Below are positions 5,929 to 64,000 of a DNA stretch of 64,000 nt, one piece after another; positions within the stretch are counted from its first letter, which is position 1; each line of letters starts with the position of its first letter. Below the pieces are notes generated by a model, which was given only the letters and a program-made list of their open reading frames with translations, searched no databases and had not been told where the DNA came from. Origin of the DNA: an uncultured Gammaproteobacteria bacterium (GTDB taxonomy: Bacteria > Patescibacteriota > Patescibacteriia > Magasanikbacterales > UBA922); assembly GCA_964447765.1 (NCBI GenBank), contig CAYUTO010000004.1, positions 22,561 to 86,560 on the forward strand, written 5' to 3'. A program made the translations under genes and the position numbers.

Positions 5929-7062
5929 CTATTCAACGACTTTTTTTGTTATTTTAGCAACAAAAAATCCTTCGATCTGGCTATTTGGTAAAATTCTCAA
6001 TACATTTTTTCTAATTGATTCACTAATCACGATATTCTTGAAAGAAGTTGCAATTGGTGCCACTTGAAGCTGAGGTAATACAATAGGTAAAAGCTCTGCC
6101 TCAGGAATCCGCTCAATAAATTTTTGTAACTGGACTTCATTTTCCTCAGGAGCAAAGGTACATGTAGAATACACTAGTACACCGCCCGGTTTCAGCATGT
6201 GCCATGCAGCTCGAAGCAAAATTCGTTGCGTATACGCCATTTCTTTAATTTTTCGTTCACTCCAGTACCCAAAACTCTTGGGATCTGTCGTATCAAACCG
6301 AGCTTCAGCGCTACAAGGTGCATCAAGTAGAATTTTATCAAAATAATTCTCATACTCTCGTGAAAGCTGAGCCCCATGCTCCATCCTAAGTGTGAATTTC
6401 CACCCTCCTGTGTCATTTCGAGCGACCGAGTCTCCGAGGGAGTCGAGAAATCCCTTGTTTAACGTAGAATTGCGGTTATGCAAGGGATCCCTCGATTCGT
6501 CGTGTGCCTCCTCACTCGGGATGACACTGCACGTCACCCCCAAAAGCTCCATATTATGCTTCAGCTTGAAAAAACGGACTTTATTCTTATCATTAGCGAC
6601 CAATTCACCTTTTTTCTCCATCATGGCAGTAATCTGGCTAGTTTTACTCCCAGGAGCTGCAGTAAGATCAAGAACTCTCTCCCCAGGTTTCGGATCCAGC
6701 ACTACCGGCGGAACCATACTAGCAAGGCTCTGAATATACAATTTTCCTTCAGAATAAAGCGACAAATCAGTTAGCTCTCGTTTTGATTTGTTGAGCAATA
6801 CAAAAGCACCGGGGTACCATGCAATTTTTTGAACTTTAAAGCCATTTTGCGACAATATAGGTAAGACCTCCGCTGAATTTGATTTGAGACTATTAATTCG
6901 AAACGTGGTTGGTCTACCAACAAACGTTTTCTCGATTTCACGAAAACGAGAAACACCAAAAATAAGAGAAGCCCGTTCAATAAATTTCTCAGGAAGATCT
7001 TTTCTAAATCCGTTTTTTCCTTTTTTCTTTCTTTTCATAATGCAATAGAACACGGATGACAC
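5929..7062 (-). CDS. rsmB: RNA m5C methyltransferase, NOL1/NOP2/Sun (RsmB/RsmF) family, carrying an in-frame insertion of about 40 aa
   Basis: SAM-binding motif VLDLTAAPGSKT; catalytic motifs DKILLDAPCS and PGGVLVYSTCT. A segment of about 120 nt between conserved motifs corresponds to a palindromic repeat element. Confidence 0.8.
   Translation of the reverse strand: MSSVFYCIMKRKKKGKNGFRKDLPEKFIERASLIFGVSRFREIEKTFVGRPTTFRINSLKSNSAEVLPILSQNGFKVQKIAWYPGAFVLLNKSKRELTDLSLYSEGKLYIQSLASMVPPVVLDPKPGERVLDLTAAPGSKTSQITAMMEKKGELVANDKNKVRFFKLKHNMELLGVTCSVIPSEEAHDESRDPLHNRNSTLNKGFLDSLGDSVARNDTGGWKFTLRMEHGAQLSREYENYFDKILLDAPCSAEARFDTTDPKSFGYWSERKIKEMAYTQRILLRAAWHMLKPGGVLVYSTCTFAPEENEVQLQKFIERIPEAELLPIVLPQLQVAPIATSFKNIVISESIRKNVLRILPNSQIEGFFVAKITKKVVE
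6409..6528. repeat. Structured palindromic element, copy 1 (family A), inserted in frame inside the rsmB-like CDS
   Basis: Nested inverted repeats: tgtgtcatttcgagcga...cgggatgacac (outer) and gagaaatcccttg...caagggatccctc (inner). Homologous to 48675..48791. Visibly G+C-richer than the flanking CDS. Confidence 0.75.
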
Positions 7063-26195: not shown

Positions 26196-26364
26196 CTGTT
26201 CTTTTTTTGGTAAGAGATGTACTGCATGGAAAACTAGTCCGATGAGGAGCAAGTGCTGGTGAATTATTCACCACCCTTTCTCCTGACCGGACTTCTCTGT
26301 CCACCAGGTAGATCGCGAGTGCGATCTAGCGTCTTTTACCGTCACAACAAGGAGTATATCAGCC

Positions 26365-26613
26365 ATGCTGAACACCACCGAACAACGAATCCGTGCCCAC
26401 ATCACCGTTCGCGAGGAGAATATCCGTAAGACGCAGCCGAAGATAAGAGCTGTACCCATGGAGCCCGCAGACGAGATGTCTCCGACCAACAAGCAGGAAG
26501 AGGTGTCCGCATCGACGAAGCCCAACTCCCCGAAAAGGAACAAGTACATACTCATGTACATTCTACTCACCGTGGGAGCTGGTGTCGCAGTAGGTCTTCT
26601 GTTCATGCGCTGA
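26365..26613 (+). CDS. Small tail-anchored membrane protein (82 aa) in a G+C-rich islet
   Basis: Strong SD AAGGAG 8 nt upstream of the ATG. Hydrophilic N-terminus and a single C-terminal TM helix (YILMYILLTVGAGVAVGLLF). Strong hairpin terminator downstream. Confidence 0.5.
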   Translation: MLNTTEQRIRAHITVREENIRKTQPKIRAVPMEPADEMSPTNKQEEVSASTKPNSPKRNKYILMYILLTVGAGVAVGLLFMR

Positions 26614-26616
26614 GCT

Positions 26617-26708
26617 TCGTCCGATCTTAGGCCCCCTTTCCTTCGGGAAGGGGGCCTCTCGGACGAAAAAAACAAACACAAAAAGAAAACGCGTAACTGC
26701 GTTTTTTT
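26617..26708 (+). terminator. Two successive hairpins after the small ORF
   Basis: GC-rich 49-nt hairpin cgtccga...ggccccctttccttcgggaagggggcc...tcggacg, then acgcgtaactgcgt followed by ttttttt. Confidence 0.6.
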
Positions 26709-26804
26709 GTTTATCAAATTAACGAACAATAAGTGTATACAAAATAATGTTAATTATCTGAATTTTAAATTATAAAATTTCTAAATTTCGAACAATGGGG
26801 GTTC

Positions 26805-27107: not shown

Positions 27108-28613
<1,506 letters not shown>

Positions 28614-29118: not shown

Positions 29119-29220
29119 TAGTCAAAAAGTCGAAAGCTAAAAGTCGAAAGTCGAGAGAGAAAAAACCTACATTACAACAAGACTTTATGGACTTTTGACT
29201 TTAAGACTTTATAGACTTTC
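29119..29220. repeat. Palindromic element with AAAGTC/GACTTT hexamer-array arms (family C), copy 1
   Basis: agtcaaaaagtcgaaagctaaaagtcgaaagtcgagag, spacer, then gactttatggacttttgactttaagactttatagacttt. Homologous to 38962..39056. Confidence 0.6.
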
Positions 29221-29947
29221 CTTTCCTCCATTCAGCGATTTTTTTATGATCCCCACTGAGAAGCACCTCGGGCACCTTCCACCCCTTAAAATCAACTGGT
29301 TTCGTATACTGTGGATACTCAACCTCAATTTCTCCCTCTCCTATACCACCTTTTTCCTTTTGCGTTTTGACATTATTAAACGTTTCATCAGTAAGAGATT
29401 CCGCATTACCTAAAACTCCTGGCACCAGTCGCGACACCGCCTCAACAATTGCTAAAGCTCCCAATTCACCACCCGCCAAAACATATGGACCAATAGAGAT
29501 TTCCTCATCAATCATATGATCTACTACGCGCTGGTCCACGCCTTCATACCGACCACAAATCAAAATAAGTTCATCAAGCTTTGCCCATGATGTGGCAGTT
29601 GATTGATCGAACTGTCTTCCACGTGGAGAAAGCAATACCGTACGTTTTTTCTGCCCAACAGTTCCCGTGGCCAGACGTTTTAATTTGGTAAGTCCAGGAG
29701 CTTTTTTGAAAGGCAATCCGTCAATTGACATAAGCGCCTCATAAATCGGATCAGGTTTCATAAGCATTCCCGCTCCCCCACCACAGAGAGTATCATCCAC
29801 CGTCTTATGTTTGTCATGCGTAAAATCACGAATATACAAAGCCCGAACGTCAATCAATTTCTTTTTTTGCGCACGACCAAGAATCGTCTCATTAGCATAT
29901 GACGTAATAATTTTTGGAAAAAGCGTGAGGACTGAAAATCGAATCAT
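29201..29947 (-). CDS. trmD: tRNA (guanine37-N1)-methyltransferase TrmD
   Basis: SPOUT/TrmD motifs: FSVLTLFP..., LLSPRGRQFDQ, ILICGRYEGVDQRV and GPYVLAGGELGAL. Confidence 0.85.
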   Translation of the reverse strand: MIRFSVLTLFPKIITSYANETILGRAQKKKLIDVRALYIRDFTHDKHKTVDDTLCGGGAGMLMKPDPIYEALMSIDGLPFKKAPGLTKLKRLATGTVGQKKRTVLLSPRGRQFDQSTATSWAKLDELILICGRYEGVDQRVVDHMIDEEISIGPYVLAGGELGALAIVEAVSRLVPGVLGNAESLTDETFNNVKTQKEKGGIGEGEIEVEYPQYTKPVDFKGWKVPEVLLSGDHKKIAEWRKGKSIKS

Positions 29948-30059
29948 AATGTTTTATAGTATACCAGGAACCAGCCTATTAAAAAATCCTCGCAACGAGG
30001 AATTCAGTCGTCCGCACCCATCAACCACACGAAGTGGAGATGGACGCGGACGTCGATAG

Positions 30060-30497
30060 TCAGCTCATCGGAATGACGTCGATATCACCGAAAAGCGACT
30101 TGATCTCCTCGGGCGTGCCAAAGAGTTTTTTGTCCTCATCCGACAGGTAGACCCGCAGATACCCGGAACGCTGTAGAATCGCGTCGTGTACCAAGTAGAA
30201 CACCACCACCTCGTAGAATCGATCCACGATCTGATTGTGGATCTGCCCGATCAGGAGCATGGCACGAGGCTTCTCCTCATAGTACGCAATACTGCGCACG
30301 TACAGAGGGAGTTTATCAGGGAAGACACCTCGCCCGTCGACGTAGAGCGGGGCAGGCTGACGATCCGACGGATCGTAGTAACTGCGATTGGACGCGTACA
30401 CATCCCAGATATTTGGGTTGTGCTCACTCGTAACGATCGGAAGGGTGATAAAATCTTTCCCTTCCTCACCAACAGACACCGTAAACGTAGCTTCCAT
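30060..30497 (-). CDS. Hypothetical protein (145 aa) in a G+C-rich islet
   Basis: ORF with SD GAGAGGA 6-7 nt upstream of the ATG at 30497. The ORF-track N-terminal extension was not used. Confidence 0.45.
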   Translation of the reverse strand: MEATFTVSVGEEGKDFITLPIVTSEHNPNIWDVYASNRSYYDPSDRQPAPLYVDGRGVFPDKLPLYVRSIAYYEEKPRAMLLIGQIHNQIVDRFYEVVVFYLVHDAILQRSGYLRVYLSDEDKKLFGTPEEIKSLFGDIDVIPMS

Positions 30498-30683
30498 GAC
30501 GATCCTCTCACGGCTTGGTAAAAACACGATGCTGGCACCGTAAACCAGACAAGAAAAAATATCATATACGATAAAAAATGTCAATAATAAAATTCCTCTG
30601 TATTAAGGAATTTTGACTCTATCGCATCTGCCGAAGCCTAAAAGCCCCGACAGATGCGATCACCGATACAGAAATCACGATGC

Positions 30684-30977
30684 TCACCGATCCAGAACGA
30701 ATGTGTACGTCACCGCTCGCACCCAGAAATGAAGGAACTTCTCCGAAGGTTTGTAGTACCGATCGATCAAGACGATTCCGTCGTAATTGATAGTACCAAA
30801 CCATACCGTTGGTTCAAGCACCACCTCTTCCTGCGTACCACACTCAGGTTTCCAGTTGAGATAAAAATTACTACCCTGGAGACCCGCGAAAAAAACACGC
30901 CCCTTCCGTGTTCTTCCGTTTGAAAAATGCTCGGTAACCGAAACACCAACAAAATCAATATCACAGAGATCTTCCAT
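30684..30977 (-). CDS. Hypothetical protein (97 aa) in a G+C-rich islet, upstream partner of 30060..30497
   Basis: SD GAGGAGG 9 nt upstream of the ATG at 30977. A hairpin separates the two genes. Confidence 0.45.
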   Translation of the reverse strand: MEDLCDIDFVGVSVTEHFSNGRTRKGRVFFAGLQGSNFYLNWKPECGTQEEVVLEPTVWFGTINYDGIVLIDRYYKPSEKFLHFWVRAVTYTFVLDR

Positions 30978-31102
30978 CCTAGACCCTCCTCAATCTATGT
31001 TGTTTCTGCATATATTTTTTACAATATTTTATATCCAAAGTCAATAAAAGTATTTTACAAATAAACATGCGTCTAGTATGATAAAAAAATAATAAAAATA
31101 CT

Positions 31103-31546
31103 ATGCCCGAACGACACACCATTATCCCCGCGTCATACCTCGTACTCAAAAAAGAAAACAGTGTACTTCTCACTCGTCGCTATAATACTGGCTTTGAAGA
31201 TGGAAACTATAGTATGATCGCAGGGCACGTCGACCAAGGTGAAACATTTACCGAAGGCATGATTCGTGAAGCACACGAAGAAGCTGGTATCACACTTTCA
31301 CCAAATGATATACAATTGGTACATATAATGCACCGAAAATCACATGTCAACGCTGAAGAAAGAATCGACGCATTTTTTCTTGCAAGTACCTGGTCAGGAA
31401 ATCTGGAAAATAAAGAACCACACAAATGTGATGATTTCTCATGGTGTGATATAAATAACTTACCAGAAAATACGATCCCCTACATCAAAGCTGCTGTGGA
31501 ATGCGTAAAACAAAATATACTGTATAGTGAATACGGCTGGAAATAA
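31103..31546 (+). CDS. NUDIX hydrolase
   Basis: Nudix box GHVDQGETFTEGMIREAHEEAGI. Confidence 0.8.
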   Translation: MPERHTIIPASYLVLKKENSVLLTRRYNTGFEDGNYSMIAGHVDQGETFTEGMIREAHEEAGITLSPNDIQLVHIMHRKSHVNAEERIDAFFLASTWSGNLENKEPHKCDDFSWCDINNLPENTIPYIKAAVECVKQNILYSEYGWK

Positions 31547-31557
31547 AAAATATTAAT

Positions 31558-32130
31558 ATGAAAATCGCAATTGACATTGACGACGTACTCGCAAATTTTA
31601 TACCCACCCTCATCCAATTTCACAATACAGTTTATGGAACAAACTATAGACTTACCGACATTGACCGATATCATCTGTGGGAAATTTGGGGCGGTACCAG
31701 AGAAGAAGCAATTGACGAAGTATACACATTTTATAATACTCCCGAATTCAAAAATCTACCCGTAATCCACGGAGCACAAAATGGAATAGGGCAACTCAAA
31801 GAAAAACACAATCTCATAGCCATGACCGCACGTCCCGAAGAAATCAGAAATAAAACCGAAGAATGGATCAGCACGCACTTTCCCGGAATTTTTTCAGAAC
31901 TACACATCGCCAATCGATTTGCAAAATCAGGCCCATCTACTACCAAAGCAGAACTCTGTGAAAAACATGGAGTAGATATGTTGATAGATGACAATCTCGA
32001 GTACGCACTGGAATGCGTTACCTCACAAAGAAAAATTTTACTGTTCAACAATCCCTGGAACCAACATCCTGAATTACCCGTAGGTATCACTCGAGTGCAT
32101 TCATGGGAAGAAATACCAAAGCACATATAG
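31558..32130 (+). CDS. HAD-superfamily 5'(3')-deoxyribonucleotidase-like protein
   Basis: N-terminal DIDDVL (HAD motif I); a length of about 190 aa and overall pattern resemble NT5C/YqfW-type nucleotidases. Confidence 0.65.
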   Translation: MKIAIDIDDVLANFIPTLIQFHNTVYGTNYRLTDIDRYHLWEIWGGTREEAIDEVYTFYNTPEFKNLPVIHGAQNGIGQLKEKHNLIAMTARPEEIRNKTEEWISTHFPGIFSELHIANRFAKSGPSTTKAELCEKHGVDMLIDDNLEYALECVTSQRKILLFNNPWNQHPELPVGITRVHSWEEIPKHI

Positions 32131-32133
32131 CTT

Positions 32134-32622
32134 ATGGAAATTCTAGACATTGTAAATCAATATGATGAAGTGATCGGAAAAGCTTCTCGAGATGAGGTAT
32201 ACGAAAAATTATTACCCCATCGCATCGTGCATGTACTTATTTTTAATGACAACAAAGAAATGGCACTACAACTCCGAAGCAAGACCGTATCCTTTTGTCC
32301 GAACCATTGGTCGACTGCGGTTGGCGGACATGTGCAATCTGGAGAAAACTATGAAGAAGCTGCAATGAGAGAATATGAAGAAGAATTAGGAATAAAAAAT
32401 GCGCTTACCTTCTTCGGTAAAGACATCTATGAAATAGAGAATAGACCAAAAAAATTCTTAACTATATTTACCAGTACATTTAACGGACCATTTTCCAAAG
32501 ATCCCACAGAAGTAGAAAAAGTTGAATTCTTCCCTCTTGAAACCATTAGAGCCATGATACAAAATGAAGAAAAATTTCACCCCGAGTTACTATTTTTACT
32601 TCAAAAATATTTTGCACACTAA
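32134..32622 (+). CDS. NUDIX hydrolase (second copy)
   Basis: Nudix box GGHVQSGENYEEAAMREYEEELGI. Confidence 0.75.
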   Translation: MEILDIVNQYDEVIGKASRDEVYEKLLPHRIVHVLIFNDNKEMALQLRSKTVSFCPNHWSTAVGGHVQSGENYEEAAMREYEEELGIKNALTFFGKDIYEIENRPKKFLTIFTSTFNGPFSKDPTEVEKVEFFPLETIRAMIQNEEKFHPELLFLLQKYFAH

Positions 32623-36033: not shown

Positions 36034-37014
36034 ATGGAAAAATTTCCGAAGCATGTTCTTAGCTCAGACCAGTTCAGTCCCGAAATGATCGAATACCTCT
36101 GCGGTCAGGCAGAAGACATCCGTGCGATCATGGAGACTGGCAAGAAACGCCAGCTTCTCGGAAAACTGCACGGAATGAGCATGTTCACAGTATTCTACGA
36201 GCCTTCGACTCGCACACGTTTTTCCTTCGAACAGGCAGGAAACGTGTGTGGTATGCACAAGTGCTCTACCGAGAATGCCGAGATAACCTCTTCAGTCTCC
36301 AAGGGTGAAAACCTAGAAGACACGGTGAAAACGCTCTCGGGATACTACCCAGATGTATTCGTGCTGCGGCACAAAGTGAAAGGAGCAGCAAAACGCGCAG
36401 CAGAAGTAATCGATGAGAAGAAAAAGAACGTGCACATCATCAACGCAGGTGATGGTAAAGGAGAACATCCTTCACAAGCACTCCTCGACTTCTACACGAT
36501 CTGGCAAGCCAAAGGAAGAAAGCTCGACAATATCCGAATCATGTTCGGAGGCGATCTGAAATACGGGCGTACTGTTCGTTCTCTCGCGCGTGTACTTGCC
36601 AAGTACCCGGGGATTACGATGACGTTCGTAGCGCCTGAAGCGCTCCAGGTCGCAGAAGACATCCGTGCAGACCTCGACACCCATCAGATACCCTACACGC
36701 TCGAATCAGATCCGATGAAGGCGTTCCCGGAAGCAGACGTGATCTATTGGACGCGACTGCAGAAAGAGAGAATCGAAGACGAACGTACACGTATCGAACT
36801 CGAGGAAATTGAACGAAAAGGAACGTACAATATCGGATCGCCACAGCTCTCAGTCATGAAGCCAACCGCGAATATCCTTCACCCACTTCCCCGTGTCGGA
36901 GAAATCCTGCACGAAGTGGACCAAGATCCACGGTCGTGGTACTTCACACAAGCTGAAAATGGGCTGTACATCCGTATAGCGCTCCTGCTGGAGCTGCTCC
37001 GCGAGTCGGAGTAA
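36034..37014 (+). CDS. pyrB: Aspartate carbamoyltransferase catalytic subunit (orphan; G+C-rich)
   Basis: STRTRFSFE, HPSQALLD, GDLKYGRTVRSL and HPLPRVGEI motifs closely match PyrB. SD GGGAGGAG upstream of the ATG. Confidence 0.85.
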   Translation: MEKFPKHVLSSDQFSPEMIEYLCGQAEDIRAIMETGKKRQLLGKLHGMSMFTVFYEPSTRTRFSFEQAGNVCGMHKCSTENAEITSSVSKGENLEDTVKTLSGYYPDVFVLRHKVKGAAKRAAEVIDEKKKNVHIINAGDGKGEHPSQALLDFYTIWQAKGRKLDNIRIMFGGDLKYGRTVRSLARVLAKYPGITMTFVAPEALQVAEDIRADLDTHQIPYTLESDPMKAFPEADVIYWTRLQKERIEDERTRIELEEIERKGTYNIGSPQLSVMKPTANILHPLPRVGEILHEVDQDPRSWYFTQAENGLYIRIALLLELLRESE

Positions 37015-39134: not shown

Positions 39135-40126
39135 ATTTAAGCCAATTACCAATAAAACAATTATCAACTAACAAATTGCATAAAATTGTATTTTTGTTAG
39201 TTGTTCCTTGCTCATTGTTCCTTATCCCCAGCATATTAAAACAAAAAACCCTTTTTTTCAAGAGTTCCTTGTATGACCCCAGAGAGGTGCAGTACGAAAT
39301 ACTACTCCTGAATGAAACAGGTGGGTAGCCGCACTTCTAGCCCACGGGCTAGAAAAATATAGGCCTCCCTATGTAGTATATTTGTAGAATAGTATATGTA
39401 CTGTACCACTAGAACCAGGGTCAATTCAAATATACCAAGACGTTCAAAATTGTGCAAATGTGACTCATCCACTACTTAGAACTCTCTAAATACTGGAGGA
39501 GAGACGACCAGGTGAAACAGGTCGCCGAGAAACAAAAGAACAATATACAGCCATGAAAGATCAAGCGCGATAACGCATAAGTCGAGATACCAACTCACAC
39601 GTTACCACTCGATTCTACTCTGACCTCACCTAAGAGTCGTGATTACCTCGCTGCCGTTTGACAGGAGTCGAGACAGGCGCCACTTGTGCCTCAGGGAGGA
39701 AGCGATGTCGACATCCGCGAAGGGAAGCAGGCTCGGGACGAGCCATCTCACTGCTTCGCGGAGGAACCGCTGACTTTTTCTTGAACTTGGCCAAATTCTT
39801 GGCCCACACTTGATACACAGAACCTTCAGGCATGATTACCCTAACGAGCATGCTCGATTGAATATTCTCAAACTTTGAGAAAACTCGCACAAAGCGGAAT
39901 TCAGTCTAAATAAAAATCTTTTTACACCAACACCAACTTACTCTAAAGACATTGAATAAGAATACAAAAATAAAAAAAACTTGTAAAGAATAGTACTACT
40001 AATTCCTTACAAGTTATTCACAGATACATACCACTGTATTCCTATGATGAAAAACAATGGCATATGGGCGATCGATGAGTGGAGTACTCATCGATCGCCC
40101 GGGAAAAAAGAACAAAAACTCGAGAA

Positions 40127-40345
40127 TCAGGCCGCACTAGCGACCTCAGGGACAGGTGGATACGCCGGCGTGTAAGCGCCCGTCCTCGTAACCGCGATGG
40201 TCCGCTTGCACTCACAACCGACGCGATAATCACCATTGCTGCATGGCTCCACGGTATCGATCTTACCGGCACCGCACGAACACTGGAAGTGCTCGCCTTT
40301 CTTGAGATGCTCAATCCGCACCACTCCTTTAATTCCCATAAACAT
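40127..40345 (-). CDS. Small Cys-rich protein (72 aa) in a G+C-rich islet
   Basis: SD AAGGAGAG 7 nt upstream of the ATG at 40345; six Cys (QCSCG...C...GCEC). Several overlapping frames are also open in this GC-rich DNA. Confidence 0.35.
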   Translation of the reverse strand: MFMGIKGVVRIEHLKKGEHFQCSCGAGKIDTVEPCSNGDYRVGCECKRTIAVTRTGAYTPAYPPVPEVASAA

Positions 40346-40459
40346 ACACACTCTCCTTGTGTGAAATAAAGACAAGAGAAACGAAAGATGGGTTGACGAG
40401 TGCGACAACGTGAGAGCTGGAGTTTCCAACTAAGCACGTTGCCGCTCTCAAACGATCGA

Positions 40460-40669
40460 TCAGTCGCCGAACTTGTACCGCAACTCCGAGCGGTCGCGAG
40501 AAGCGATCTCACGATCCCAGACCGCAGCGATCCGGTCGTCGAGGAGGACGGGCGCGGTATTCTTGCGCTCCTTCTTACGCGAAGGGGCGAGAACCGCCTC
40601 CGAGGACTTGATGGACTTGGCGTCGAGGTTCAGCTGCTGTGACGGCAGCTTGGAATTATCTCCAGACAT
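40460..40669 (-). CDS. Small basic protein (69 aa) in a G+C-rich islet
   Basis: ATG at 40669 preceded by GGGGGA; the choice of frame is uncertain. Confidence 0.3.
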   Translation of the reverse strand: MSGDNSKLPSQQLNLDAKSIKSSEAVLAPSRKKERKNTAPVLLDDRIAAVWDREIASRDRSELRYKFGD

Positions 40670-48674: not shown

Positions 48675-48791
48675 TGTGTCATTCCGAGCGAAGCGTAGCG
48701 AAGTCGAGGAATCCCTTGTTTAAAGTAATATTAACTTAATGCAAGGGATTCCTCGACTCCCCTCAAAGACTCGGGTCGCTCGGAATGACAC
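48675..48791. repeat. Structured palindromic element, copy 2 (family A), intergenic, 11 nt upstream of the queA start codon
   Basis: Perfect nested inverted repeats: gtcattccgagcg/cgctcggaatgac (outer) and gtcgaggaatcccttg/caagggattcctcgac (inner). Homologous to 6409..6528. Confidence 0.75.
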
Positions 48792-55784: not shown

Positions 55785-56534
55785 TCAGGTCGGGAGGTAT
55801 CCCGACGCAGAACCGTTGTACGGACTAGCTTCATCGATCCAGCGTGCACTGAAATACAGACAATCCATGTTCTGAATATTGAAGTTCGGGGCGCACATTT
55901 CTCGTCCAAGGAGATCCAACGGATCGTATGCATCTCCAGCACAATCGATATTCAAATCACTACGATGCTGCAGACGTTCAGGATGCGTCAGAAGCATGGT
56001 CCCGACCATGTATGAGTCGAGACCGAACTCATTTCGACCGAACATCTCACGCGCTCGACGGATCGAACGTCCGCGGTGACGGAGTCCGAATTGAGCAGGA
56101 ATGATGAGGATATCGCCCGACTGTTGTTCCGTGAGCCGCGTGAGCCATGTCCAGTGCAGAGACTTCGTGCGGTGTATCTGCTGCGGAACGAACTTGGAAT
56201 TTCCAAGACGCACGCCCGTGCCACGACTCAGACGAAGCGCTGCCAGCACATGAGCCAACTGATTTGTCTCTTTTTCAAACGTACGAGAGTCACTACCATC
56301 ATGGCAGTACAGATTCTTCGGTCGGACGAGAGCGAAGGGGTCCTCCACCCACCTGGGAATCTTGAGGTTCGGATACACCTCGCGCATGTACCGCAGAGCA
56401 GGATCAGGATCCAGATTCGACCAGTGAGACCGGATGATGTCGATCTGGTCCTCCACACTCTTCGGCTTCTCATAGCCAGAGTAATAACCCCACTTGGACA
56501 CCTTCTCTTCGTTAGCGAATCGGTTGCTCATCAC
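55785..56534 (-). CDS. Hypothetical protein (249 aa) in a G+C-rich islet
   Basis: Uninterrupted ORF, visibly GC-richer than its neighbours, with a hairpin downstream (gaagcccg...cgggcttc); no recognisable domain. Confidence 0.45.
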   Translation of the reverse strand: MMSNRFANEEKVSKWGYYSGYEKPKSVEDQIDIIRSHWSNLDPDPALRYMREVYPNLKIPRWVEDPFALVRPKNLYCHDGSDSRTFEKETNQLAHVLAALRLSRGTGVRLGNSKFVPQQIHRTKSLHWTWLTRLTEQQSGDILIIPAQFGLRHRGRSIRRAREMFGRNEFGLDSYMVGTMLLTHPERLQHRSDLNIDCAGDAYDPLDLLGREMCAPNFNIQNMDCLYFSARWIDEASPYNGSASGYLPT

Positions 56535-56673: not shown

Positions 56674-59600
56674 CTATTTCAACTCTTCACCATCCTCATA
56701 CACTTCATTCTCATCAATTACGATGATGCGATCTCCTCTAAAGTTAAGTTTAGTGAATGCATCTTCAGTTACGATCCATCGTTTGATGAGCTTAGATGAA
56801 TCAGTAGGATCTACTTCAAGACGATACACTTTGGGAGAAGTAGTATATTTGATGAGGGTGTAGGCAGGATGAACGTCGGTTCTCGTAATCTCTTCACCCA
56901 CCTTATATGCATCAAGAAGACGAGGGTCTACATCTTCAATCCAGTCTGAGCGATAGTTCAACTTGTTGAACACTTCTTCACTGGTAATCCAGTATTTCGT
57001 ATCATTAATGAGTACATAGACTTTAGGATCATAGGGAGTTTTAATGAGTGCTCCATAGGTTGGACGATACAGGGGTCCGAGAGGTAAGAATGACAGCGGA
57101 TCAAGAGGGACTGAAGTGAGGGTTACATTGGTAACCACACCTACATCACTCCATGATGAGAAGTAAGTAAAATACGTTCGTTCATTCGGAATTGGCCGCC
57201 TCGTACAGTCTGACGTGACATAGAATACTGAAGGAGAGCCTGATGATTTATATGGCTGCTCCGGAGTAAGTGGACATGCGTTTGAGGTAAGGGTAATCGT
57301 GTCTGAAAGAATGAGTTCTCCCCCTTCAGGAGTTCGTAATTTAACGTATACGGTCTTTTCTCCATTCCCAAGAGGGAGCGTGTACCAGAGTGGAGAGATG
57401 AGTGATTCAAATGATCCATTGGCGAATGTAGGGTCAGTAGAAACAGCAACCATGGAAGCATTAGGTGAAGTTATATGCAGAGACACCAAGCGACTGTTTG
57501 TTGAGAGTGCTCCCTGGTTGATCGTGAAGTGAGATGCTGAAGACGGAAGGGTGGGAGGAAGGTATGGGATACCGCCGTTTGAGGAAGATGTATCGTTAGA
57601 GTCACTGTCACCCTCCCCTTCTTCACCCATCAGAGCAAAAAGTGAGAATCCAGGAGTGTCACAGGTGACGGTAAAAAGACTCGTGTTAATTGTGCACGGA
57701 GAGAGTTCGGTCCATGTGCTAGTTGCATAACGATAAATAACTAAGGTAGTAGGGTCGAGACTCCCAAGTGTATCTGGATCGTAGGTCATGGTGAGTTCAA
57801 TTGGTTCATCGAATTCTGAGATGATAGTTGAGGTGTTTGCAATTGCTTTGAGATGAAAAACGAGAGAACCAACGACTGTTCTACCAGCAGGAATGCCTCC
57901 GTCTTCAATCACCGTTACAGTATCTACTTGTTTAATCTGGAACACAACATCAGTGGAAGTAGTAAATGCAGGAGGAATATCAAGAGCAATACTCTCAGCT
58001 ACCGTCTCAAGTTGAATAGTAGCACCTAAACTTGAAGAAACTGCAGAACTCTCTGAAGCAATTACCGGCGCTGAAAATGAACACCCTTGAGTCACAAACG
58101 TGCGATGAGAACTAGTTGCAACATCACCATCAGCTGTCACAGCACGAGGAGTGTAGTGATAAACCGTACAAGGTAGTAACCCAGTCATCAAAACTTCATG
58201 AGTAGTAACTCTGGAAGATGTATTACTCTCAGTAGTCGAAACTCCCAGTGATGCAACCAACCCATACAACACTCGAGATGAAGCAAGTCGATTAGTAGAC
58301 CACGAGATAGTAGCAGTTGAAGTGCTGATATTAGTTGAAGTGACACTAGAAATGCTTAATAGTGCGTTAGTGATAGTAGAAGTAACAGAAGAATACGCAC
58401 TCGAAGTCGATACGTTATCAGCGCGCACTTGAAATGAATAACTAGAATTAGGAGTGAGTCCAGTAAAAGTATAACTTGTCTCAGTAGTAGTAACGACTGA
58501 CCCCACAGTACTAGAGATAGAGTAGAATGTTGCACCTGCAGCAGAAGACCACGACAATTGAACTGAAGAAGTAGAAAAAGTACTTGTAGTAAATTCAGGA
58601 GAGGAAAGACTAGTCAATTCTGAAAATGTCAAAATATATGCAGCTCCTGAATTAGAACCATTTACATTTGTTTCACTTGGAGCACCTACAATCAACACAT
58701 CATTAGTTTTATCAAAAGAAACCTCAACACCAAACCATGAATCAATACTTGCATCAGATGCAACCAATTTTTCATTCTCTTCCCAATCTCCACTTTCTCG
58801 GTCAAAAATATATACGGCTCCAGTGTCAGTAGTATTACCAGATGCACCAATCGCAACTTTCTCACCTAGACCATCGATTGCAACAGCTTCACCAAAAAAG
58901 TTACTTGCTGCAGCATCACTTGCGACAACCTTTTGATCTAATGACCACGATACCCCACTCCGCACAAAAACATACCCCGAACCAGAAGCACTCCCAGCGT
59001 CATCATTTGAATAAGCTCCAACAACGACATACTCCCCTGAATCAGAAATGGAAACTGCATTACCAAAAAAATCACTAGCGGCAGGATCATTTGCATTTAG
59101 TTTTGCCTGTTGAGCCCAAGTACTGGTCGTACGATAAAACACATAGGCAGAACCAGAACTAAGAGCAGTATCATCATCATTCGGAGCTCCGACAAGTATA
59201 TAATCACCTGATTCTGAGATATCTACAGCTCGACCAAACCAATCGTCAGCCGCCCGGTCGGTAGGAACTATTTTTTGCTGTTGTGACCATACTCCACTTC
59301 CATCTCTTTTAAAAATATATGCAGAGCCTGCTGCACTCAATGTATTAGCACCCGCAGCATCCTGATCCTCGCGATATGCACCAATAATTGCATATTCACC
59401 CGCCATAGCAAGTTTATCACCAAAAAAATCTTGATTTGCAAGATCACTTGAAACAAGTCTTTGATGAAGATCCCATGAGGAGCCCGTACGTTTATAGACA
59501 AACACCGCACCAGCCTGCGACCCATCATTATGGTCGGTCACCATAGCATAATCACCCGCAATCGCTACATTTTCCGCAAAAAAAGTAGAACCAGTCGATG

Positions 59601-59868
59601 TGGTAATCATCGCCTGCTGAATCCAAGAACCATCCTCAAAATGAAAAATATAAGCTTTCTTTTGATTATCAACTCCAACTATTGCATAGTCGCCAGAGAC
59701 ATCAACTGAGTATCCAAATCCCTGACTAGCCACTCCATCTGAAGGAAGAATTTTAGCATCTTCTACCCAAGCGGCCCGAATAAAATCAAAATGAATATAA
59801 AAAGATAAAAAACCAAAAGCAATAATGCTTAAAATCCAAAAAGATTTGTTAAAAAGAAATTTTTGCAT
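56674..59868 (-). CDS. Giant secreted or surface-anchored protein (1064 aa): N-terminal signal/anchor, FG-GAP-like beta-propeller repeats, two FN3-like domains, conserved C-terminal module of about 450 aa
   Basis: N-terminal hydrophobic segment. Repeats of the type DFFGxAVxIxxxGDYxxVGAP. FN3-like segments (LSWSSAAGATFYSIS...SYSFQVRADN). The C-terminal region is nearly identical to its downstream paralog. Confidence 0.7.
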   Translation of the reverse strand: MQKFLFNKSFWILSIIAFGFLSFYIHFDFIRAAWVEDAKILPSDGVASQGFGYSVDVSGDYAIVGVDNQKKAYIFHFEDGSWIQQAMITTSTGSTFFAENVAIAGDYAMVTDHNDGSQAGAVFVYKRTGSSWDLHQRLVSSDLANQDFFGDKLAMAGEYAIIGAYREDQDAAGANTLSAAGSAYIFKRDGSGVWSQQQKIVPTDRAADDWFGRAVDISESGDYILVGAPNDDDTALSSGSAYVFYRTTSTWAQQAKLNANDPAASDFFGNAVSISDSGEYVVVGAYSNDDAGSASGSGYVFVRSGVSWSLDQKVVASDAAASNFFGEAVAIDGLGEKVAIGASGNTTDTGAVYIFDRESGDWEENEKLVASDASIDSWFGVEVSFDKTNDVLIVGAPSETNVNGSNSGAAYILTFSELTSLSSPEFTTSTFSTSSVQLSWSSAAGATFYSISSTVGSVVTTTETSYTFTGLTPNSSYSFQVRADNVSTSSAYSSVTSTITNALLSISSVTSTNISTSTATISWSTNRLASSRVLYGLVASLGVSTTESNTSSRVTTHEVLMTGLLPCTVYHYTPRAVTADGDVATSSHRTFVTQGCSFSAPVIASESSAVSSSLGATIQLETVAESIALDIPPAFTTSTDVVFQIKQVDTVTVIEDGGIPAGRTVVGSLVFHLKAIANTSTIISEFDEPIELTMTYDPDTLGSLDPTTLVIYRYATSTWTELSPCTINTSLFTVTCDTPGFSLFALMGEEGEGDSDSNDTSSSNGGIPYLPPTLPSSASHFTINQGALSTNSRLVSLHITSPNASMVAVSTDPTFANGSFESLISPLWYTLPLGNGEKTVYVKLRTPEGGELILSDTITLTSNACPLTPEQPYKSSGSPSVFYVTSDCTRRPIPNERTYFTYFSSWSDVGVVTNVTLTSVPLDPLSFLPLGPLYRPTYGALIKTPYDPKVYVLINDTKYWITSEEVFNKLNYRSDWIEDVDPRLLDAYKVGEEITRTDVHPAYTLIKYTTSPKVYRLEVDPTDSSKLIKRWIVTEDAFTKLNFRGDRIIVIDENEVYEDGEELK

Positions 59869-59929
59869 AGTCCTATAATAAAGTATAGTGATAGTATATC
59901 ATATCAAAAAATAAAAATTTTAACCTTCT

Positions 59930-62900
59930 TTATTCCAAACTTTCACCATCTTCATACACTTCACTCTCACCAATCACGATGATTCGATCTCCTCTGAAGT
60001 TGAGTTTCTTGAACGCGTCCTCAGTTACAATCCAGCGCTTGATAAGTTTGGTTGCATCAGTAAGATCAACTTCAAGACGATAGACCTTGGGGGAATTTTG
60101 GTACTTAATCAGAGTGAACGCAGGATGAACGTCAGTTCGAGTTATTTCTTCTCCTACATTATATGCATCAAGAAGACGAGAATCTACATCCTCGATCCAG
60201 TCTGAGCGATAGTTAAGTTTAGCGAATACTATCTCATCCGTGACCCAATATTTGGTGTCGTTAATCAAAACGTATACTTTGGGATCTCCCGGTGTCTTGA
60301 TGAGTGCTCCATAGGTAGGACGGTACAAAGGACCAAGAGGAAGGAAAGAGAAAGCATCGAGAGGCACTGAAGTAAGAGTAGCAAGAGATACAACACCTAC
60401 ATCGCTCCATGATGAAAAGTAAGTAAAATACGTTCTTTCATTCGGAATTGGCCGTCTCGTACAGTCTGACGTGACGTAGAATACTGAGGAAGAACTCAAT
60501 GTTTTGTAGGGACGCTCTGGTGTAAGTGGGCATGCGTTTGAGGTTAGAGTAATAGTATCTGAGAGGATGAGCTCTCCCCCTTCAGAGGTTCGTAATTTGA
60601 TATAAACCGTCTTTTCTCCATTCCCGAGAGGGAGTGTATACCAGAGTGGAGAAATCAGTGATTCAAATGATCCATTGGTAAATGTAGAATCAGAAGAGAC
60701 AGCAACCATCGAAGCATTAGGTGAAGTTATATGCAGAGACACCAAGCGACTGTTTGTTGAGAGCGCTCCTTGATTAATAGTAAATTGAGATACCGAAGAC
60801 GGAGGGGCGGGAGGGATATATGGGATACCACCGTTTAAGGGAGATGTATCACCAGCACCACCCTCATCATCCCCTTCTTCTCCCATAAGAGCAAAAAGTG
60901 AGAATCCAGGGGTGTCACAAGTAACGGTAAAGGCGTTCGTATTTACAGTGCAAGGAGAAAGTTGTGTCCATTCGTCATCAGTATATCTAAAGATTGACAA
61001 CGTCGTTGTATCAATCCCCTCAAGGTCACTTGGATCATACGTCATAGTAACCTCAACCGGTTCATCAAAAGTTGAGATAATAGTTGAAGTGTCTGAAATA
61101 GCTTTAAAATCAAAAACAAGAGACCCGATAATATTTTTACCCGCAGGCAACCCTCCATCAGTCGTAACAATATCCTTCTCAAGTCGCTTGAGCTGAAAAG
61201 CGGCGGCAGTCGTACTTGTAAATCCAGTTGGCACAGTAAGGGAAACCCCGTTACCTGATTCCAAAAACGTAATCGACCCTCCAGACGAAGAAGACACTAC
61301 GGAAGCTTCATGAGATATAATTGGTGCAGAAAATTGACACCCCCGAGTAGCAAAGGTGCGTTTAGAACTCGTAGTAAAATCTCCTGATCCTGCAACCGCT
61401 CGAGGTGTATAATTATAAACCGTACAAGGAACAAGATTAGTAAGAGAAACCTCATGATCAAGAACTCGAGTGAGTGTATTGATTTCTGTAGTAGACACAC
61501 CGAGGGAAGTAATAAATCCGTATAAAATTCGAGAAGACGCAGGGCGGTTCGTAATCCAAGAGATAGTTGCAGTCGAAGTTCCAACGTTAGTTGAAGTCAC
61601 ATTTGAAATAACAAGAGTTGGTTGTGTTGAGGTGGTAAAAACAGAAGAATAAGAACTTGAAGTTGATAAATTATTTGCTCGTACTTGGAACGAATAACTC
61701 GTATTAGGATTAAGTCCAGAAAAAGTATAATTAGTTGCAGCAGTAGTAACTGGAGAAGTCGCAGTTGAAGAAACAGTATATGAGGTTGCACCAGAAACAG
61801 GTGACCATGAAAATGGTATAGAAGCTGCCGCAGCGGTAAAAGAAACAAACGAAGGAACTCCAAGAGAACTTCCCTCGGAGAGGGTGAACATCATAATTCG
61901 AGAATTCCCATTATCAGCCACATATAACCGATCATTATTAGAATCATAGGTTACCCCCTTAGGTGTTGCAAATTTTGATTGCGAAGCAGAGCCTGCTGCA
62001 CCCGTAAAATCAGTCTGCCCAAGAACATAACTTGCATTCATGCCATTTGAAATTGTGGTTGTTGAAAAGTCATATACTACCACTCGATCACTATCATTAT
62101 CTCCCACAAATAAACGTTGATTTTCTGCATCATACGCAAGACCTTGCGGATCATCTAATCCCGATTGTGTTGCAGCTGCAGAACTCCCTGTAAACGTTGA
62201 CTGACCAAGAACATAACTCGCACTTGGAAAATCAACTTCAGTCGTATTTGCAGGCGAAGCATCAAAAATAGATATTCTGTGAGCTGTAGTTTGAGTAACA
62301 TACAGACGTTCATTATCAACATCATAGGTCACGCCTCGCGTGCTAGGTAATGATGAAGTACTGATACCTGAATAGCCATTATCGAAATCCGGTGCACCAA
62401 AAATATATTTAGCATTCATACCATTTGAAATGGTACTCGTTGCAACATCGAACACAATAACTACTGCACCGCCCACAAAAAGTCGCTGATGTACAGGGTT
62501 ATAAGCCAACCCTGCTGGACTTGATAAACCTGCTTGTGTACCTAAAGCACTACCGTTCGTAAATAGAATCTGTCCAAGAACATAATTAGCAGGCATGCCG
62601 TTCGAAATTGTCGTTGTAGAAAAATCGTATACCTTAACACGATTATTACCTGTATCAGAGACAAACAAACGATTACTCACCAGATCATATGCAAGTCCGT
62701 CAGTATTATTGAAACCTACTTGGGTAGTCGCCGAACTATTGCCAGTAAATAAAGCTTGTCCAAGAATATGTAACGCAGGCTTACCATTTGAAATAGTCGT
62801 TGTGGAAAAATCAAAAATACTTACACGATTCGAATTAGACACAAAAAGTCGGCTATTATTTGAATCATACACGAGACCGTCAGGTGAAACCAATCCTACC

Positions 62901-64000
62901 TGAGTACTACCACTACTACCTACAGTAAAAGTGGTTTGTCCAAGCACATAGCTTGCACTCATACCATTCGTAATGGATATTGAAAGATCAAATACTAACA
63001 CTCGATTATTACCACCATCCGTAACAAAAAGATAATCATTTTCATAGTCATAGGCAAGACCCTGAGGAGCACTCATACCACTTTGAGTAGTAGCTTGCGT
63101 CTTAGTATTAAAATTAGACTGGCCCAATACATAATCAGCCTCATAATCAATTAAATCATTATTACTATCAAGAGTATGGACCAACACTCGATGATTCTGA
63201 TCATCCGACACAAACAACCGATGATTCACCGTATCAAGAAAAGTATAGTAAGGAAAATCAAACCCAATTCGTGTAGGACCATTATTGTAGCCAACTCTCG
63301 TATAAACTGGCACCAACTGATCACTGTCATTATAGTCAAAATGTCCAAGTAAATCAGTTGCGTTCATCCCATTAGTAATAGTTGATGTAGCCGCATTAAA
63401 AATACTCACTCGATTAGTACTATCTTGGACTACATACAATTTACCAGTCGTCTCATTATAAGCAAGCCCCCCTGACCCAAGAGTACTCGACTGTGTCGTA
63501 GCAAACGTAGAAGTAGTAAAATTCGGTTGACCTAACTGATAAGTAGCATTTTCTCCATTAGTAATAGACGCAACATCATATACTACAACTCGTCGATTAG
63601 AAGAATCATTTACAAATAAACGATTACTTATAGAATCATATGCGATACCACTAGGTGCACTCAATCCCGATTGAGTTGTAGCAGCAGTACTACCGGTAAA
63701 CGTAGTTTGTCCCAACACATAATTAGCAGGCATACCGTTCGAAATTGTCGTTGTAGAAAAATCATAGACGCTAACACGATTCGCATTTCCACCTTGCGCA
63801 ACAAATAAACGGTTATAAACCGAATCATAAGCAAGTCCCGTAGGGCCCCGAGTACTAGTTTGAGTCGTAACACCAGTGCTGGCCGTGAATGTAAGTTGTC
63901 CCAACACATAATTAGCAGGCATACCGTTCGAAATTGTCGTTGTAGAAAAATCATAGACGCTAACACGATTATTACCTGTCTGTCCAACAAATAATCGACT
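59930..64000 (-). CDS. Giant surface protein, paralog (more than 1356 aa; N-terminus lies beyond the window): NHL-type beta-propeller repeats, FN3-like domains, shared C-terminal module
   Basis: The frame stays open from the first in-window ATG (63922) up to the window edge. The repeat unit is LAYDxxxNRLFVxDxxNNRVxVYD. The C-terminal 450 aa are about 90% identical at the DNA level to 56674..58200. Confidence 0.7.
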   Translation of the reverse strand, partial: SRLFVGQTGNNRVSVYDFSTTTISNGMPANYVLGQLTFTASTGVTTQTSTRGPTGLAYDSVYNRLFVAQGGNANRVSVYDFSTTTISNGMPANYVLGQTTFTGSTAATTQSGLSAPSGIAYDSISNRLFVNDSSNRRVVVYDVASITNGENATYQLGQPNFTTSTFATTQSSTLGSGGLAYNETTGKLYVVQDSTNRVSIFNAATSTITNGMNATDLLGHFDYNDSDQLVPVYTRVGYNNGPTRIGFDFPYYTFLDTVNHRLFVSDDQNHRVLVHTLDSNNDLIDYEADYVLGQSNFNTKTQATTQSGMSAPQGLAYDYENDYLFVTDGGNNRVLVFDLSISITNGMSASYVLGQTTFTVGSSGSTQVGLVSPDGLVYDSNNSRLFVSNSNRVSIFDFSTTTISNGKPALHILGQALFTGNSSATTQVGFNNTDGLAYDLVSNRLFVSDTGNNRVKVYDFSTTTISNGMPANYVLGQILFTNGSALGTQAGLSSPAGLAYNPVHQRLFVGGAVVIVFDVATSTISNGMNAKYIFGAPDFDNGYSGISTSSLPSTRGVTYDVDNERLYVTQTTAHRISIFDASPANTTEVDFPSASYVLGQSTFTGSSAAATQSGLDDPQGLAYDAENQRLFVGDNDSDRVVVYDFSTTTISNGMNASYVLGQTDFTGAAGSASQSKFATPKGVTYDSNNDRLYVADNGNSRIMMFTLSEGSSLGVPSFVSFTAAAASIPFSWSPVSGATSYTVSSTATSPVTTAATNYTFSGLNPNTSYSFQVRANNLSTSSSYSSVFTTSTQPTLVISNVTSTNVGTSTATISWITNRPASSRILYGFITSLGVSTTEINTLTRVLDHEVSLTNLVPCTVYNYTPRAVAGSGDFTTSSKRTFATRGCQFSAPIISHEASVVSSSSGGSITFLESGNGVSLTVPTGFTSTTAAAFQLKRLEKDIVTTDGGLPAGKNIIGSLVFDFKAISDTSTIISTFDEPVEVTMTYDPSDLEGIDTTTLSIFRYTDDEWTQLSPCTVNTNAFTVTCDTPGFSLFALMGEEGDDEGGAGDTSPLNGGIPYIPPAPPSSVSQFTINQGALSTNSRLVSLHITSPNASMVAVSSDSTFTNGSFESLISPLWYTLPLGNGEKTVYIKLRTSEGGELILSDTITLTSNACPLTPERPYKTLSSSSVFYVTSDCTRRPIPNERTYFTYFSSWSDVGVVSLATLTSVPLDAFSFLPLGPLYRPTYGALIKTPGDPKVYVLINDTKYWVTDEIVFAKLNYRSDWIEDVDSRLLDAYNVGEEITRTDVHPAFTLIKYQNSPKVYRLEVDLTDATKLIKRWIVTEDAFKKLNFRGDRIIVIGESEVYEDGESLE

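Follow-up and report, generated by a model that had tools for sequence, protein, structure and literature searches.

What are the two short, G+C-rich genes that stand upstream of trmD in this stretch of DNA, a 64-kb piece of contig CAYUTO010000004.1 with an overall G+C content of 41%, and what may their products do? The window, as the whole stretch is called here, carries both genes on its minus strand. A preliminary description, which left the strand unstated, had reported two codirectional open reading frames (ORFs) of 97 and 145 amino acids (aa) between trmD and a nudix cluster; both ORFs are present at this position, and the flanking genes are supported by Pfam. Comparison with related loci answers the first part of the question: the genes occupy conserved and vertically inherited slots, and the coding sequences (CDSs) within these slots are idiomorphic, belonging to at least three unrelated families. 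The genes and their immediate neighbors in the window are the following.

30684-30977, minus strand: orf97 (gene 1), 97 aa, called from the sequence.
30060-30497, minus strand: orf145 (gene 2), 145 aa with an ATG start, called from the sequence.
30186-30521, plus strand: an antisense ORF of 111 aa opposite orf145.
29201-29947, minus strand: trmD, assigned by Pfam.
31103-32622, plus strand: the nudix-NT5C-nudix cluster, assigned by Pfam.

The comparison covers nine independent related loci: the window, L001 (equal to L002 and L009), L003, L004, L005 to L008 as one locus, L010, L011, L012, and L013 (equal to L014). TrmD shows 86 to 93% identity among them, and cassettes are found immediately upstream of trmD in all nine. 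In the window, each gene is framed by its own set of putative expression signals.

31013-31047, minus strand: gene 1 promoter, TTGACT, 17 nucleotides (nt), TAAAAA, predicted from consensus and alignment.
30978-31012, minus strand: gene 1 leader, with a conserved CAGAAACAAC block and the Shine-Dalgarno sequence (SD) GAGGAGG.
30621-30660, minus strand: long 3' RNA hairpin of gene 1, 18 base pairs (bp), with several G.U pairs on the sense strand.
30586-30610, minus strand: intrinsic terminator of gene 1, TTCCTT...AGGAA plus a U run.
30556-30588, minus strand: gene 2 promoter with an extended -10 element, TTGACA, 17 nt, TG-n-TATTTT, predicted from conservation.
30498-30551, minus strand: gene 2 leader of 54 nt, with stem-loop S1, the SD GAGAGGA, and a candidate H-type pseudoknot.
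30009-30052, minus strand: long 3' RNA hairpin of gene 2, ∼19 bp, z = -5.4.
29981-30002, minus strand: intrinsic terminator of gene 2, TTCCTCGTTGCGAGGA plus T6 (TTCCTCGTTGCGAGGATTTTTT), directly upstream of the trmD promoter region.

In the 186-nt spacer between orf97 and orf145, an 18-bp hairpin is thus followed by an intrinsic terminator and by a conserved promoter with an extended -10 element, and a second long hairpin with a terminator is located 3' of orf145. With a terminator behind the first gene and a strictly conserved promoter ahead of the second, these signals mark orf97 and orf145 as two putatively separate transcription units with the same grammar and not as an operon, and the term "two-gene cassette" used in the preliminary description is not supported. 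The strong SDs and the GC hairpin between the genes that it named were all located: GAGGAGG at 30985-30991, 7 nt 5' of the orf97 ATG, GAGAGGA at 30503-30509, 5 nt 5' of the orf145 ATG, and the hairpin as listed above for gene 1. The -35 and -10 blocks of the gene 1 promoter are kept in the alignment of the window with L003, L005, L010, and L011, and both the consensus and this conservation suggest promoter function. The gene 2 promoter, ATTATTGACATTTTT-N7-TATGATATTTTTT, is the best-conserved noncoding block of the locus, with ∼45 nt invariant despite different CDS families downstream. It is exact in seven fetched loci, which represent five distinct sites (L001, L002, and L009 being one site), and variant forms are found in L012 and L013. 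The promoter, leader, and terminator are each single copy in the window and in every locus, which led to the rejection of a dispersed repeat; in the JGI metagenomes, the promoter/leader pattern, scanned for in two versions, had 0 matches.

The RNA structures predicted at both ends of the transcripts are conserved to different degrees. Together with the small terminator hairpin, the gene 1 hairpin has a minimum free energy (MFE) of -44.7 kcal/mol (z = -7.5 versus shuffles) and shows compensatory changes in 14 of 26 pairs in five loci. The gene 2 hairpin shows such changes in 6 of 24 pairs, with almost none broken, likewise in five loci. Across the loci the long 3' hairpins comprise 17 to 20 bp with z values of -4 to -9 versus shuffles. 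Many of their G.U pairs are confined to the sense strand, so that these hairpins are probably RNA elements of the mRNAs. In the gene 2 leader, the 5' stem-loop S1 (30530-30551) has an invariant stem, CUGGU/RCCAG, which is hence uninformative on covariation. Its loop, ACGGU (30537-30541), can pair with GCCGU (30510-30514) just 5' of the SD. In this helix 2 (S2), 4 of 5 pairs are changed on both sides and 91% of the cells are paired in an alignment of only seven loci; the changes include C-G to U-A in L013 and G-C to A-U in L010. The score of helix 2 was reached by 3 of 500 shuffles, and slid controls gave 0, which makes the leader a candidate for an H-type pseudoknot. The linear-fold MFE of the leader is no better than that of shuffles, and Rfam 15 gave no match to it at an expectation value (E) of ≤10, with two chance-level matches elsewhere (E of 6.5 and 8.6). 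A scan had flagged the leader hairpin as an attenuator or terminator; this was rejected, as the pairing is not kept in relatives.

The contents of the slots differ widely among the loci. In L003, whose TrmD is 93% identical to that of the window, the orf97 homolog shows 86% identity and gene 2 is of a 122-aa Z type, linked to orf145 only via hhalign (probability of 92%). L010 carries gene 2 at 52% identity and gene 1 at 29%, with an hhalign probability of 96.8% between the latter and orf97. In L001 and L004, gene 1 encodes an unrelated 99-aa protein of type C, and no orf97 homolog is present. L011 shows two tandem orf97-like paralogs with 29% mutual identity followed by an orf145 homolog, and L012 shows an orf97-like gene followed by an orf145 homolog. 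The orf97-like gene of L012 (66-409) is split over two overlapping frames, either by a frameshift, indicating a possible pseudogene, or by an assembly error. L013 has a single slot, in which a 107-aa type C gene with 36% identity to the L001 type C gene (E of 4e-12) stands behind the gene 2 promoter and leader. Profile-profile comparison shows the A/B family (that of orf97), the X/Z family (that of orf145), and the C family as mutually unrelated. These three families fill one to three slots in mosaic combinations, and the allele types of the slots do not covary: gene 1 of type A occurs alongside X or Z, and gene 2 of type X occurs alongside A, B, or C.

The borders of the differing segments can be located by sliding identity. 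Between the window and L003, identity is 0.8 to 0.95 across nudix2, NT5C, orf97, the promoter/leader, and trmD and drops to 0.13 to 0.55 exactly over the gene 2 CDS and its hairpin. A second drop marks the place where a gene for a basic 116-aa protein replaces nudix1 in L003. L004 and L011 are near-identical from the gene 1 hairpin onward, with preceding CDSs of type C and B2, respectively. The gene 1 hairpin of the window is homologous to those 3' of the unrelated CDSs in these two loci, which assigns the hairpin to the slot and not to the cargo. Between close relatives, identity breaks sharply at the SD and at the hairpin or terminator.

The number of synonymous substitutions per site (dS) in the cassettes equals that in trmD; between the window and L003 it is 0.63 for both orf97 and trmD. 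This equality, together with synteny in all nine loci, shows an old, vertically inherited locus and does not support a recent import of foreign DNA into the genome of the window. The slots belong to a variable islet that extends from EF-G/nudix to trmD. The interval from EF-G to trmD varies across the loci as a whole: MazG-like and C39-peptidase-like genes are added in L010, the nudix cluster is absent from L005 to L008, and a 219-aa membrane protein is inserted in L004.

Both orf97 and orf145 are real protein-coding genes. This follows from ratios of nonsynonymous to synonymous substitution rates (dN/dS) of 0.13 to 0.48, from substitutions in the minus-strand frame of both families that follow the order of third, first, and second codon positions, and from intact frames of conserved length in six to eight homologs, which also keep the ATG start and the SD. 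The G+C contents of the three codon positions of orf145 are 0.59 (GC1), 0.34 (GC2), and 0.66 (GC3). In the mechanical ORF list, orf145 is extended to a TTG at 30584; since this extension crosses the gene 2 promoter, the ATG is taken as the start. The 111-aa antisense ORF is a by-product of high GC3, and its length is unconserved among the homologs (111, 155, 104, and 68 aa). The families differ in constraint, with a dN/dS of 0.13 to 0.22 for orf97 and 0.30 to 0.48 for orf145. The dS of the orf145 family matches that of trmD, which at equal dS has a dN/dS of 0.05 to 0.12; the dN/dS of orf145 is 3 to 4 times that of trmD.

The orf97 protein, of family A/B, is acidic (pI of 5.3). Its AlphaFold2 (AF2) model, with a mean predicted local distance difference test score (pLDDT) of 71 and seven strands, predicts an all-beta protein. 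Homologs show 87, 86, and 71% identity, and more distant types show 22 to 35%. Invariant positions in the family are occupied by glycines, tryptophans, and other hydrophobic or aromatic residues; none of the conserved residues is polar, and for this reason the orf97-type products are read as nonenzymatic. The orf145 protein, of family X/Z, is also acidic (pI of 4.8), with homologs at 41 to 56% identity and an AF2 model that is unusable (pLDDT of 38). Its X-type members have the polar motifs VGEEGKDF, DR, and H104 in common. Every cassette allele except Z has a pI of 4.3 to 6.4, and no signal peptide is evident in orf97 or orf145.

Both families are orphans. A k-mer-seeded search of 5.8 billion proteins gave three relatives for orf145 and four for orf97, the latter raised to six by a profile search; with HMMER, a full search of 1.84 billion representatives by profile gave only two of them for orf145. 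Pfam, NCBIfam, PHROGs, and PADLOC show no match for either protein even at an E of ≤1 to 10, in line with the absence of a recognizable motif reported earlier, and none of 14 family members has a match in these four collections or among PDB sequences at permissive thresholds (E of ≤10 in Pfam). PADLOC-DB v2 gave zero matches for orf97, orf145, type C, type Z, and B2, its only match being a generic Nudix similarity (PDC-S07) in the neighboring nudix genes. No homolog was found in IMG/VR, the INPHARED phages, the PLSDB plasmids (phages and plasmids by tblastn), or BFVD, which leaves the earlier suggestion of a defense, phage, or toxin affiliation without a match in any of these collections. Profile matches of orf145 in the PDB are antibody heavy chains at chance level. 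A borderline profile match in the PDB between the orf97 family and the GT2 domain of Listeria GmaR (E of 0.0056) was rejected, as it links an alpha/beta GT-A segment to an all-beta prediction and the protein is too small for a GT-A fold; the literature on GmaR yielded nothing of further use for orf97. Also rejected were a paralogous or domain-sharing relationship between orf97 and orf145 (hhalign probability of ≤2.6%) and a derivation of the L001-type 99-aa gene from orf97 by divergence (0.2 to 0.5%). A search of the literature on hypervariable small proteins of atypical G+C content in Patescibacteria found nothing relevant.

The distribution is very narrow, with nine loci among about 15 billion proteins: orf97 and orf145 are confined to one narrow clade of small-genome bacteria resembling the candidate phyla radiation (CPR)/Patescibacteria. 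The assignment of the host draws on the rRNA gene and the ribosomal protein genes of the window, which carries a ribosomal-protein/EF-Tu block, EF-G/S7/S12, and the following rRNA gene.

27109-28612, minus strand: solitary 16S rRNA gene, with no adjacent 23S gene.

The host 16S rRNA is only 72.8% identical to that of Escherichia coli, and an L30 gene is missing between S5 and L15 (14014-15221). With the solitary 16S gene, these features argue against a gammaproteobacterial host and for a CPR/Patescibacteria-like lineage; the title "uncultured Gammaproteobacteria" of related metagenome-assembled genomes is almost certainly a mislabel. One source study of related loci concerns Polish municipal wastewater and river water (SRP286056, PMC9405806).

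The base composition sets the cassettes apart from their surroundings. The G+C content is 0.463 for orf97 and 0.527 for orf145, clearly above the 0.36 to 0.43 of trmD, the nudix genes, NT5C, and EF-G, as the preliminary description had stated. The excess is located at third codon positions, with a GC3 of 0.49 for orf97 (z = 2.8) and 0.66 for orf145 (z = 5.5) against a mean of 0.319 and a standard deviation of 0.061 for 52 other ORFs of the window, only two of which exceed 0.40. All cassette alleles of all families show this signature (GC3 of 0.49 to 0.83, compared to 0.31 to 0.47 in flanking genes of the same locus), with a GC2 of 0.34 to 0.50 and an amino acid composition that are native-like. 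At third positions A is avoided, and G and C are gained; the share of A at 4-fold sites is 0.06 to 0.12 in the cassettes and 0.30 to 0.39 in core genes. This codon choice is opposite to that of the EF-Tu, EF-G, and ribosomal protein genes, for which reason translational optimization was rejected as the cause of the high GC3. Simple amelioration after one ancient transfer fails as well, given the mutual saturation of the allele types. The candidates left are a common foreign pool, selection at the mRNA level, and strongly biased gene conversion at a hot spot of recombination. The view of the pair as undescribed, lineage-restricted, and compositionally atypical genes of accessory type stands, with orphan families of real coding sequence. 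As for the proposal that homologs might be universal core genes of ordinary G+C content, the slot is universal among the related loci, while its G+C content is atypical and its content is variable.

The same codon signature occurs elsewhere in the window. Another orphan of 249 aa (55785-56534, minus strand) has a GC3 of 0.59 and also avoids A at third positions; it shows no Pfam or NCBIfam match, has a TTGACA promoter of its own and a structured 3' end, and is located immediately downstream of two giant FG-GAP/NHL/fn3 surface proteins (56674-63922, minus strand), whose C-terminal ∼450 aa are unannotated. An aspartate/ornithine carbamoyltransferase gene (36034-37014, plus strand) has a GC3 of 0.57 compared to ∼0.32 for the genome and may have been acquired horizontally.

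The favored explanation treats each gene as the content of an "expression slot," in which a sigma-70 promoter close to consensus and a leader carrying a strong SD precede the CDS, and a conserved 17- to 20-bp hairpin and an intrinsic terminator follow it. Homologous recombination in the conserved flanks and expression signals would move alleles from strain to strain. The 5' stem-loop or pseudoknot and the 3' hairpins would act as RNA-level elements of the transcripts, perhaps stabilizing or regulating them, which is a guess. The products would be nonenzymatic binders or inhibitors in a strain-specific conflict, such as toxin immunity, defense, or counterdefense, and orf97 and orf145 would not form a cognate toxin-antitoxin or toxin-immunity pair. 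The architectural and evolutionary part of this explanation is highly probable. Taken as a whole, with slots, idiomorphic cargo, and immunity-like products of strain-specific conflict, the statement is held tentatively and falls somewhat short of probable. The functional part, nonenzymatic and immunity-like binders under strain-specific selection, is a doubtful reading of the sequence features.

Several points weigh against this explanation. The sample consists of nine loci, several of them on short contigs. Selection within each allele type is purifying and not positive (omega of 0.13 to 0.48), which leaves allele replacement and the turnover of copy number and family as the sole grounds for speaking of conflict. 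The strength of expression is read from sequence signals, and an enzymatic role for orf145 is possible, given its unpredicted fold and the polar motifs of the X type. In none of the loci could a toxin, secretion-system, phage, or defense gene be identified beside the slots. The persistently high GC3, combined with a native-like GC2 and an opposite codon usage, is not explained by a model of slots and conflict. The earlier idea of an accessory or conflict-type module survives in part: the hypervariable site, the nonhomologous alleles, and the variable copy number agree with it, while the affiliation with known defense, phage, or toxin systems is missing.

A bolder version of the favored explanation sees the site as a "plug-in" locus of a kind not described before, with fixed slots (promoter, leader with pseudoknot, structured 3' hairpin, and terminator) in which unrelated small ORFs are exchanged precisely at the CDS boundaries, a locus-specific process that raises G+C, and a cargo that would form a new strain-specific repertoire of immunity or defense in organisms without most known defense systems. 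The process that keeps GC3 high could be a hairpin-guided exchange of cassettes or a strongly biased gene conversion where recombination is frequent. This version is quite unlikely. A similarly slender chance is given to the explanation of the genes as remnants or moron-type genes of a lineage-specific mobile element or phage, active in antidefense or superinfection exclusion and fixed at a recombination hot spot, with a GC3 derived from a common foreign pool. It would account for the codon signature common to the three cassette families and the orphan at 55785-56534, for the autonomous units of promoter, gene, and terminator, which are typical of morons, and for the variable gene content of the islet (Nudix, NT5C, MazG-like, and C39-like). 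However, repeat and tRNA checks at the locus found no tRNA, integrase, or flanking direct or inverted repeats at the slot site, and the searches of IMG/VR, INPHARED, BFVD, PHROGs, and PLSDB gave no homolog. The native-like GC2 and amino acid composition and a dS that matches the flanks also speak against an origin of this kind.

A cassette is present in all the related loci found. Its place directly 5' of trmD, with the 16S rRNA gene and the str operon (EF-G, S7, and S12) close by, raises the question of a housekeeping role. The genes that usually precede trmD are rpsP and rimM, and orf97 and orf145 could be highly diverged stand-ins for them or lineage-specific factors associated with the ribosome or rRNA. 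Promoters and SDs that look strong and constitutive and the prediction of orf97 as a small beta protein fit this role. It is nevertheless improbable. None of the 14 family members matches Ribosomal_S16, RimM, or the PRC barrel in Pfam at an E of ≤10, and the slots of relatives with 86 to 93% identical TrmD hold nonhomologous proteins, L013 lacking both families altogether. The elevated dN/dS of orf145 relative to trmD and a codon usage opposite to that of ribosomal protein and elongation factor genes point in the same direction.

The proposal closest to the preliminary description, a recently acquired foreign module of two cognate genes (toxin-antitoxin, toxin-immunity, or two-component antiphage), starts from two small, adjacent, codirectional genes with strong SDs and atypical G+C, and both families do occur together in 5 of 7 readable loci (the window, L003, L010, L011, and L012). 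The pairing is contradicted by the terminator and conserved promoter between the genes and by the free combination of A with X or Z and of X with A, B, or C. It is further contradicted by the lone third-family gene of L013, where neither family is present, and by L001 and L004, which are devoid of an orf97 homolog. The agreement of dS with trmD and the synteny exclude a recent import, and PADLOC, Pfam, and PHROGs are without a match. A cognate pair is thus very unlikely, and the toxin-immunity reading of the two genes is disfavored. The chance is equally small that the genes encode small-ligand-binding or regulatory proteins under riboswitch-like control, in which the leader senses a metabolite or host factor and a beta-barrel product, GrlR-like or lipocalin-like, binds a small molecule or regulator: the fold matches are below significance, Rfam is without a match, the fold energy of the leader is no better than that of shuffles, and proteins of three unrelated families follow the same leader, which does not resemble a regulon specific for one ligand. 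The idea that the G+C-rich stretches are structured RNAs with accidental ORFs, suggested by the frequent RNA nature of G+C-rich islands in A+T-rich genomes and by the long antisense ORFs that are also open, is hardly credible in view of the codon-position G+C and substitution pattern, the dN/dS, the intact frames of conserved length, the conservation of the SD and ATG but not of antisense ORF length, and the absence of an Rfam match.

Structured elements were also observed outside the locus. A G+C-rich segment (0.51 to 0.53) downstream of the 16S rRNA gene (26237-26730) has no codon periodicity and includes a very strong hairpin (26613-26668; -39 kcal/mol) without an Rfam match at an E of ≤1; the segment may be an undescribed structured RNA. 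A subthreshold match to 6S RNA (39272-39424, minus strand; 36.4 bits compared to a gathering score of 46.4; E of 3e-5) adjoins tRNA-Pro, and at a distance of ∼600 nt a region (40045-40604) shows a G+C content of 0.52 and several strong hairpins, with no coding signature and no Rfam match. Two near-identical palindromes of ∼56 nt, GTCGAGRAATCCCTTG...CAAGGGATYCCTCGA, at 6441-6496 and 48701-48756 could be copies of a short, dispersed inverted repeat.

The genomes of CPR/Patescibacteria are very small, come for the most part from uncultured organisms, and are rich in unannotated small genes, and very little is known of how these bacteria handle phages, competitors, and hosts. The locus upstream of trmD offers a compact example of strain-level variation in a small CPR-like genome, with a regulatory scaffold that is more conserved than any neighboring gene and at least three orphan families exchanged inside it. 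If the products were immunity or defense factors, they would represent a new repertoire together with a genomic signature, a conserved slot with GC3-rich idiomorphic cargo. The GC3 excess with a native-like GC2 bears on the distinction between biased gene conversion and mRNA selection, and the conserved 3' hairpins and the candidate SD-proximal pseudoknot are of interest whatever the function of the proteins.

Among known systems, type II toxin-antitoxin loci show the same two short, adjacent, codirectional genes with good SDs. Here, however, a putative terminator and promoter separate the genes, no toxin-antitoxin domains are found in Pfam, NCBIfam, or PADLOC at an E of ≤10, and the partners do not covary, either being missing or replaced by an unrelated family. 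Integron cassettes, consisting of an ORF and an attC hairpin, likewise feature short ORFs, each followed by an imperfect hairpin, in variable number and identity. In contrast to these, each ORF of the locus has a promoter of its own, the hairpin is linked to the slot (homologous behind unrelated CDSs in L004 and L011), and the G.U pairs point to an RNA rather than a single-stranded DNA hairpin. An integron R'/R" core (GTTRRRY) was not seen by eye, and the interval from EF-G to the 16S rRNA gene, in which all genes are accounted for, contains no integrase.

On the RNA level, the GC-rich 3' hairpin upstream of a terminator resembles repetitive extragenic palindrome (REP)-like 3' elements, and the 5'-terminal stem-loop resembles protective 5'-terminal hairpins. 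The candidate H-type fold with a U-rich loop 3 beside the SD recalls the SD-proximal pseudoknots of rpsO/S15, the alpha operon/S4, and T4 gene 32 and those of the SAM-II, preQ1-II, and guanidine-III riboswitches. Unlike these, the elements of the locus are single copy and locus specific and show no Rfam match at an E of ≤10. Autogenous control by the product is unlikely, because the leader precedes unrelated CDS families.

Orphan immunity arrays and the immunity loci of polymorphic toxins, such as the acquired interbacterial defense islands of Bacteroidales and the orphan cdiI/rhsI arrays, encode small, acidic, cytoplasmic proteins of nonenzymatic appearance, as the cassettes seem to do. Further likenesses are unrelated families at one chromosomal site with a variable copy number (including the tandem paralog of L011), deep allele classes among close relatives, an atypical composition, and homologs only in a narrow group. 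The differences are the lack of a nearby toxin gene, toxin C-terminal fragment, Rhs/CDI remnant, or recombinase, the lack of a match to Imm, SUKH, or similar families, the individual conserved promoter, hairpin, and terminator of each gene, and the reduced-genome, CPR-like host. By analogy, the small, acidic, hypervariable, and arrayed character of the cassettes is compatible with orphan immunity proteins and not diagnostic of them. A further parallel is found in idiomorphic or allelic-class loci that are kept by recombination in the flanks, for example, the pneumococcal pherotype, bacteriocin-immunity, and capsule loci. These share with the slots upstream of trmD the conserved flanks, the sharp breaks of identity, the nonhomologous or deeply diverged alleles, and the purifying selection within each type. 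The locus differs from them in that its units are single small cytoplasmic proteins and that the conserved flanks are the expression signals themselves.

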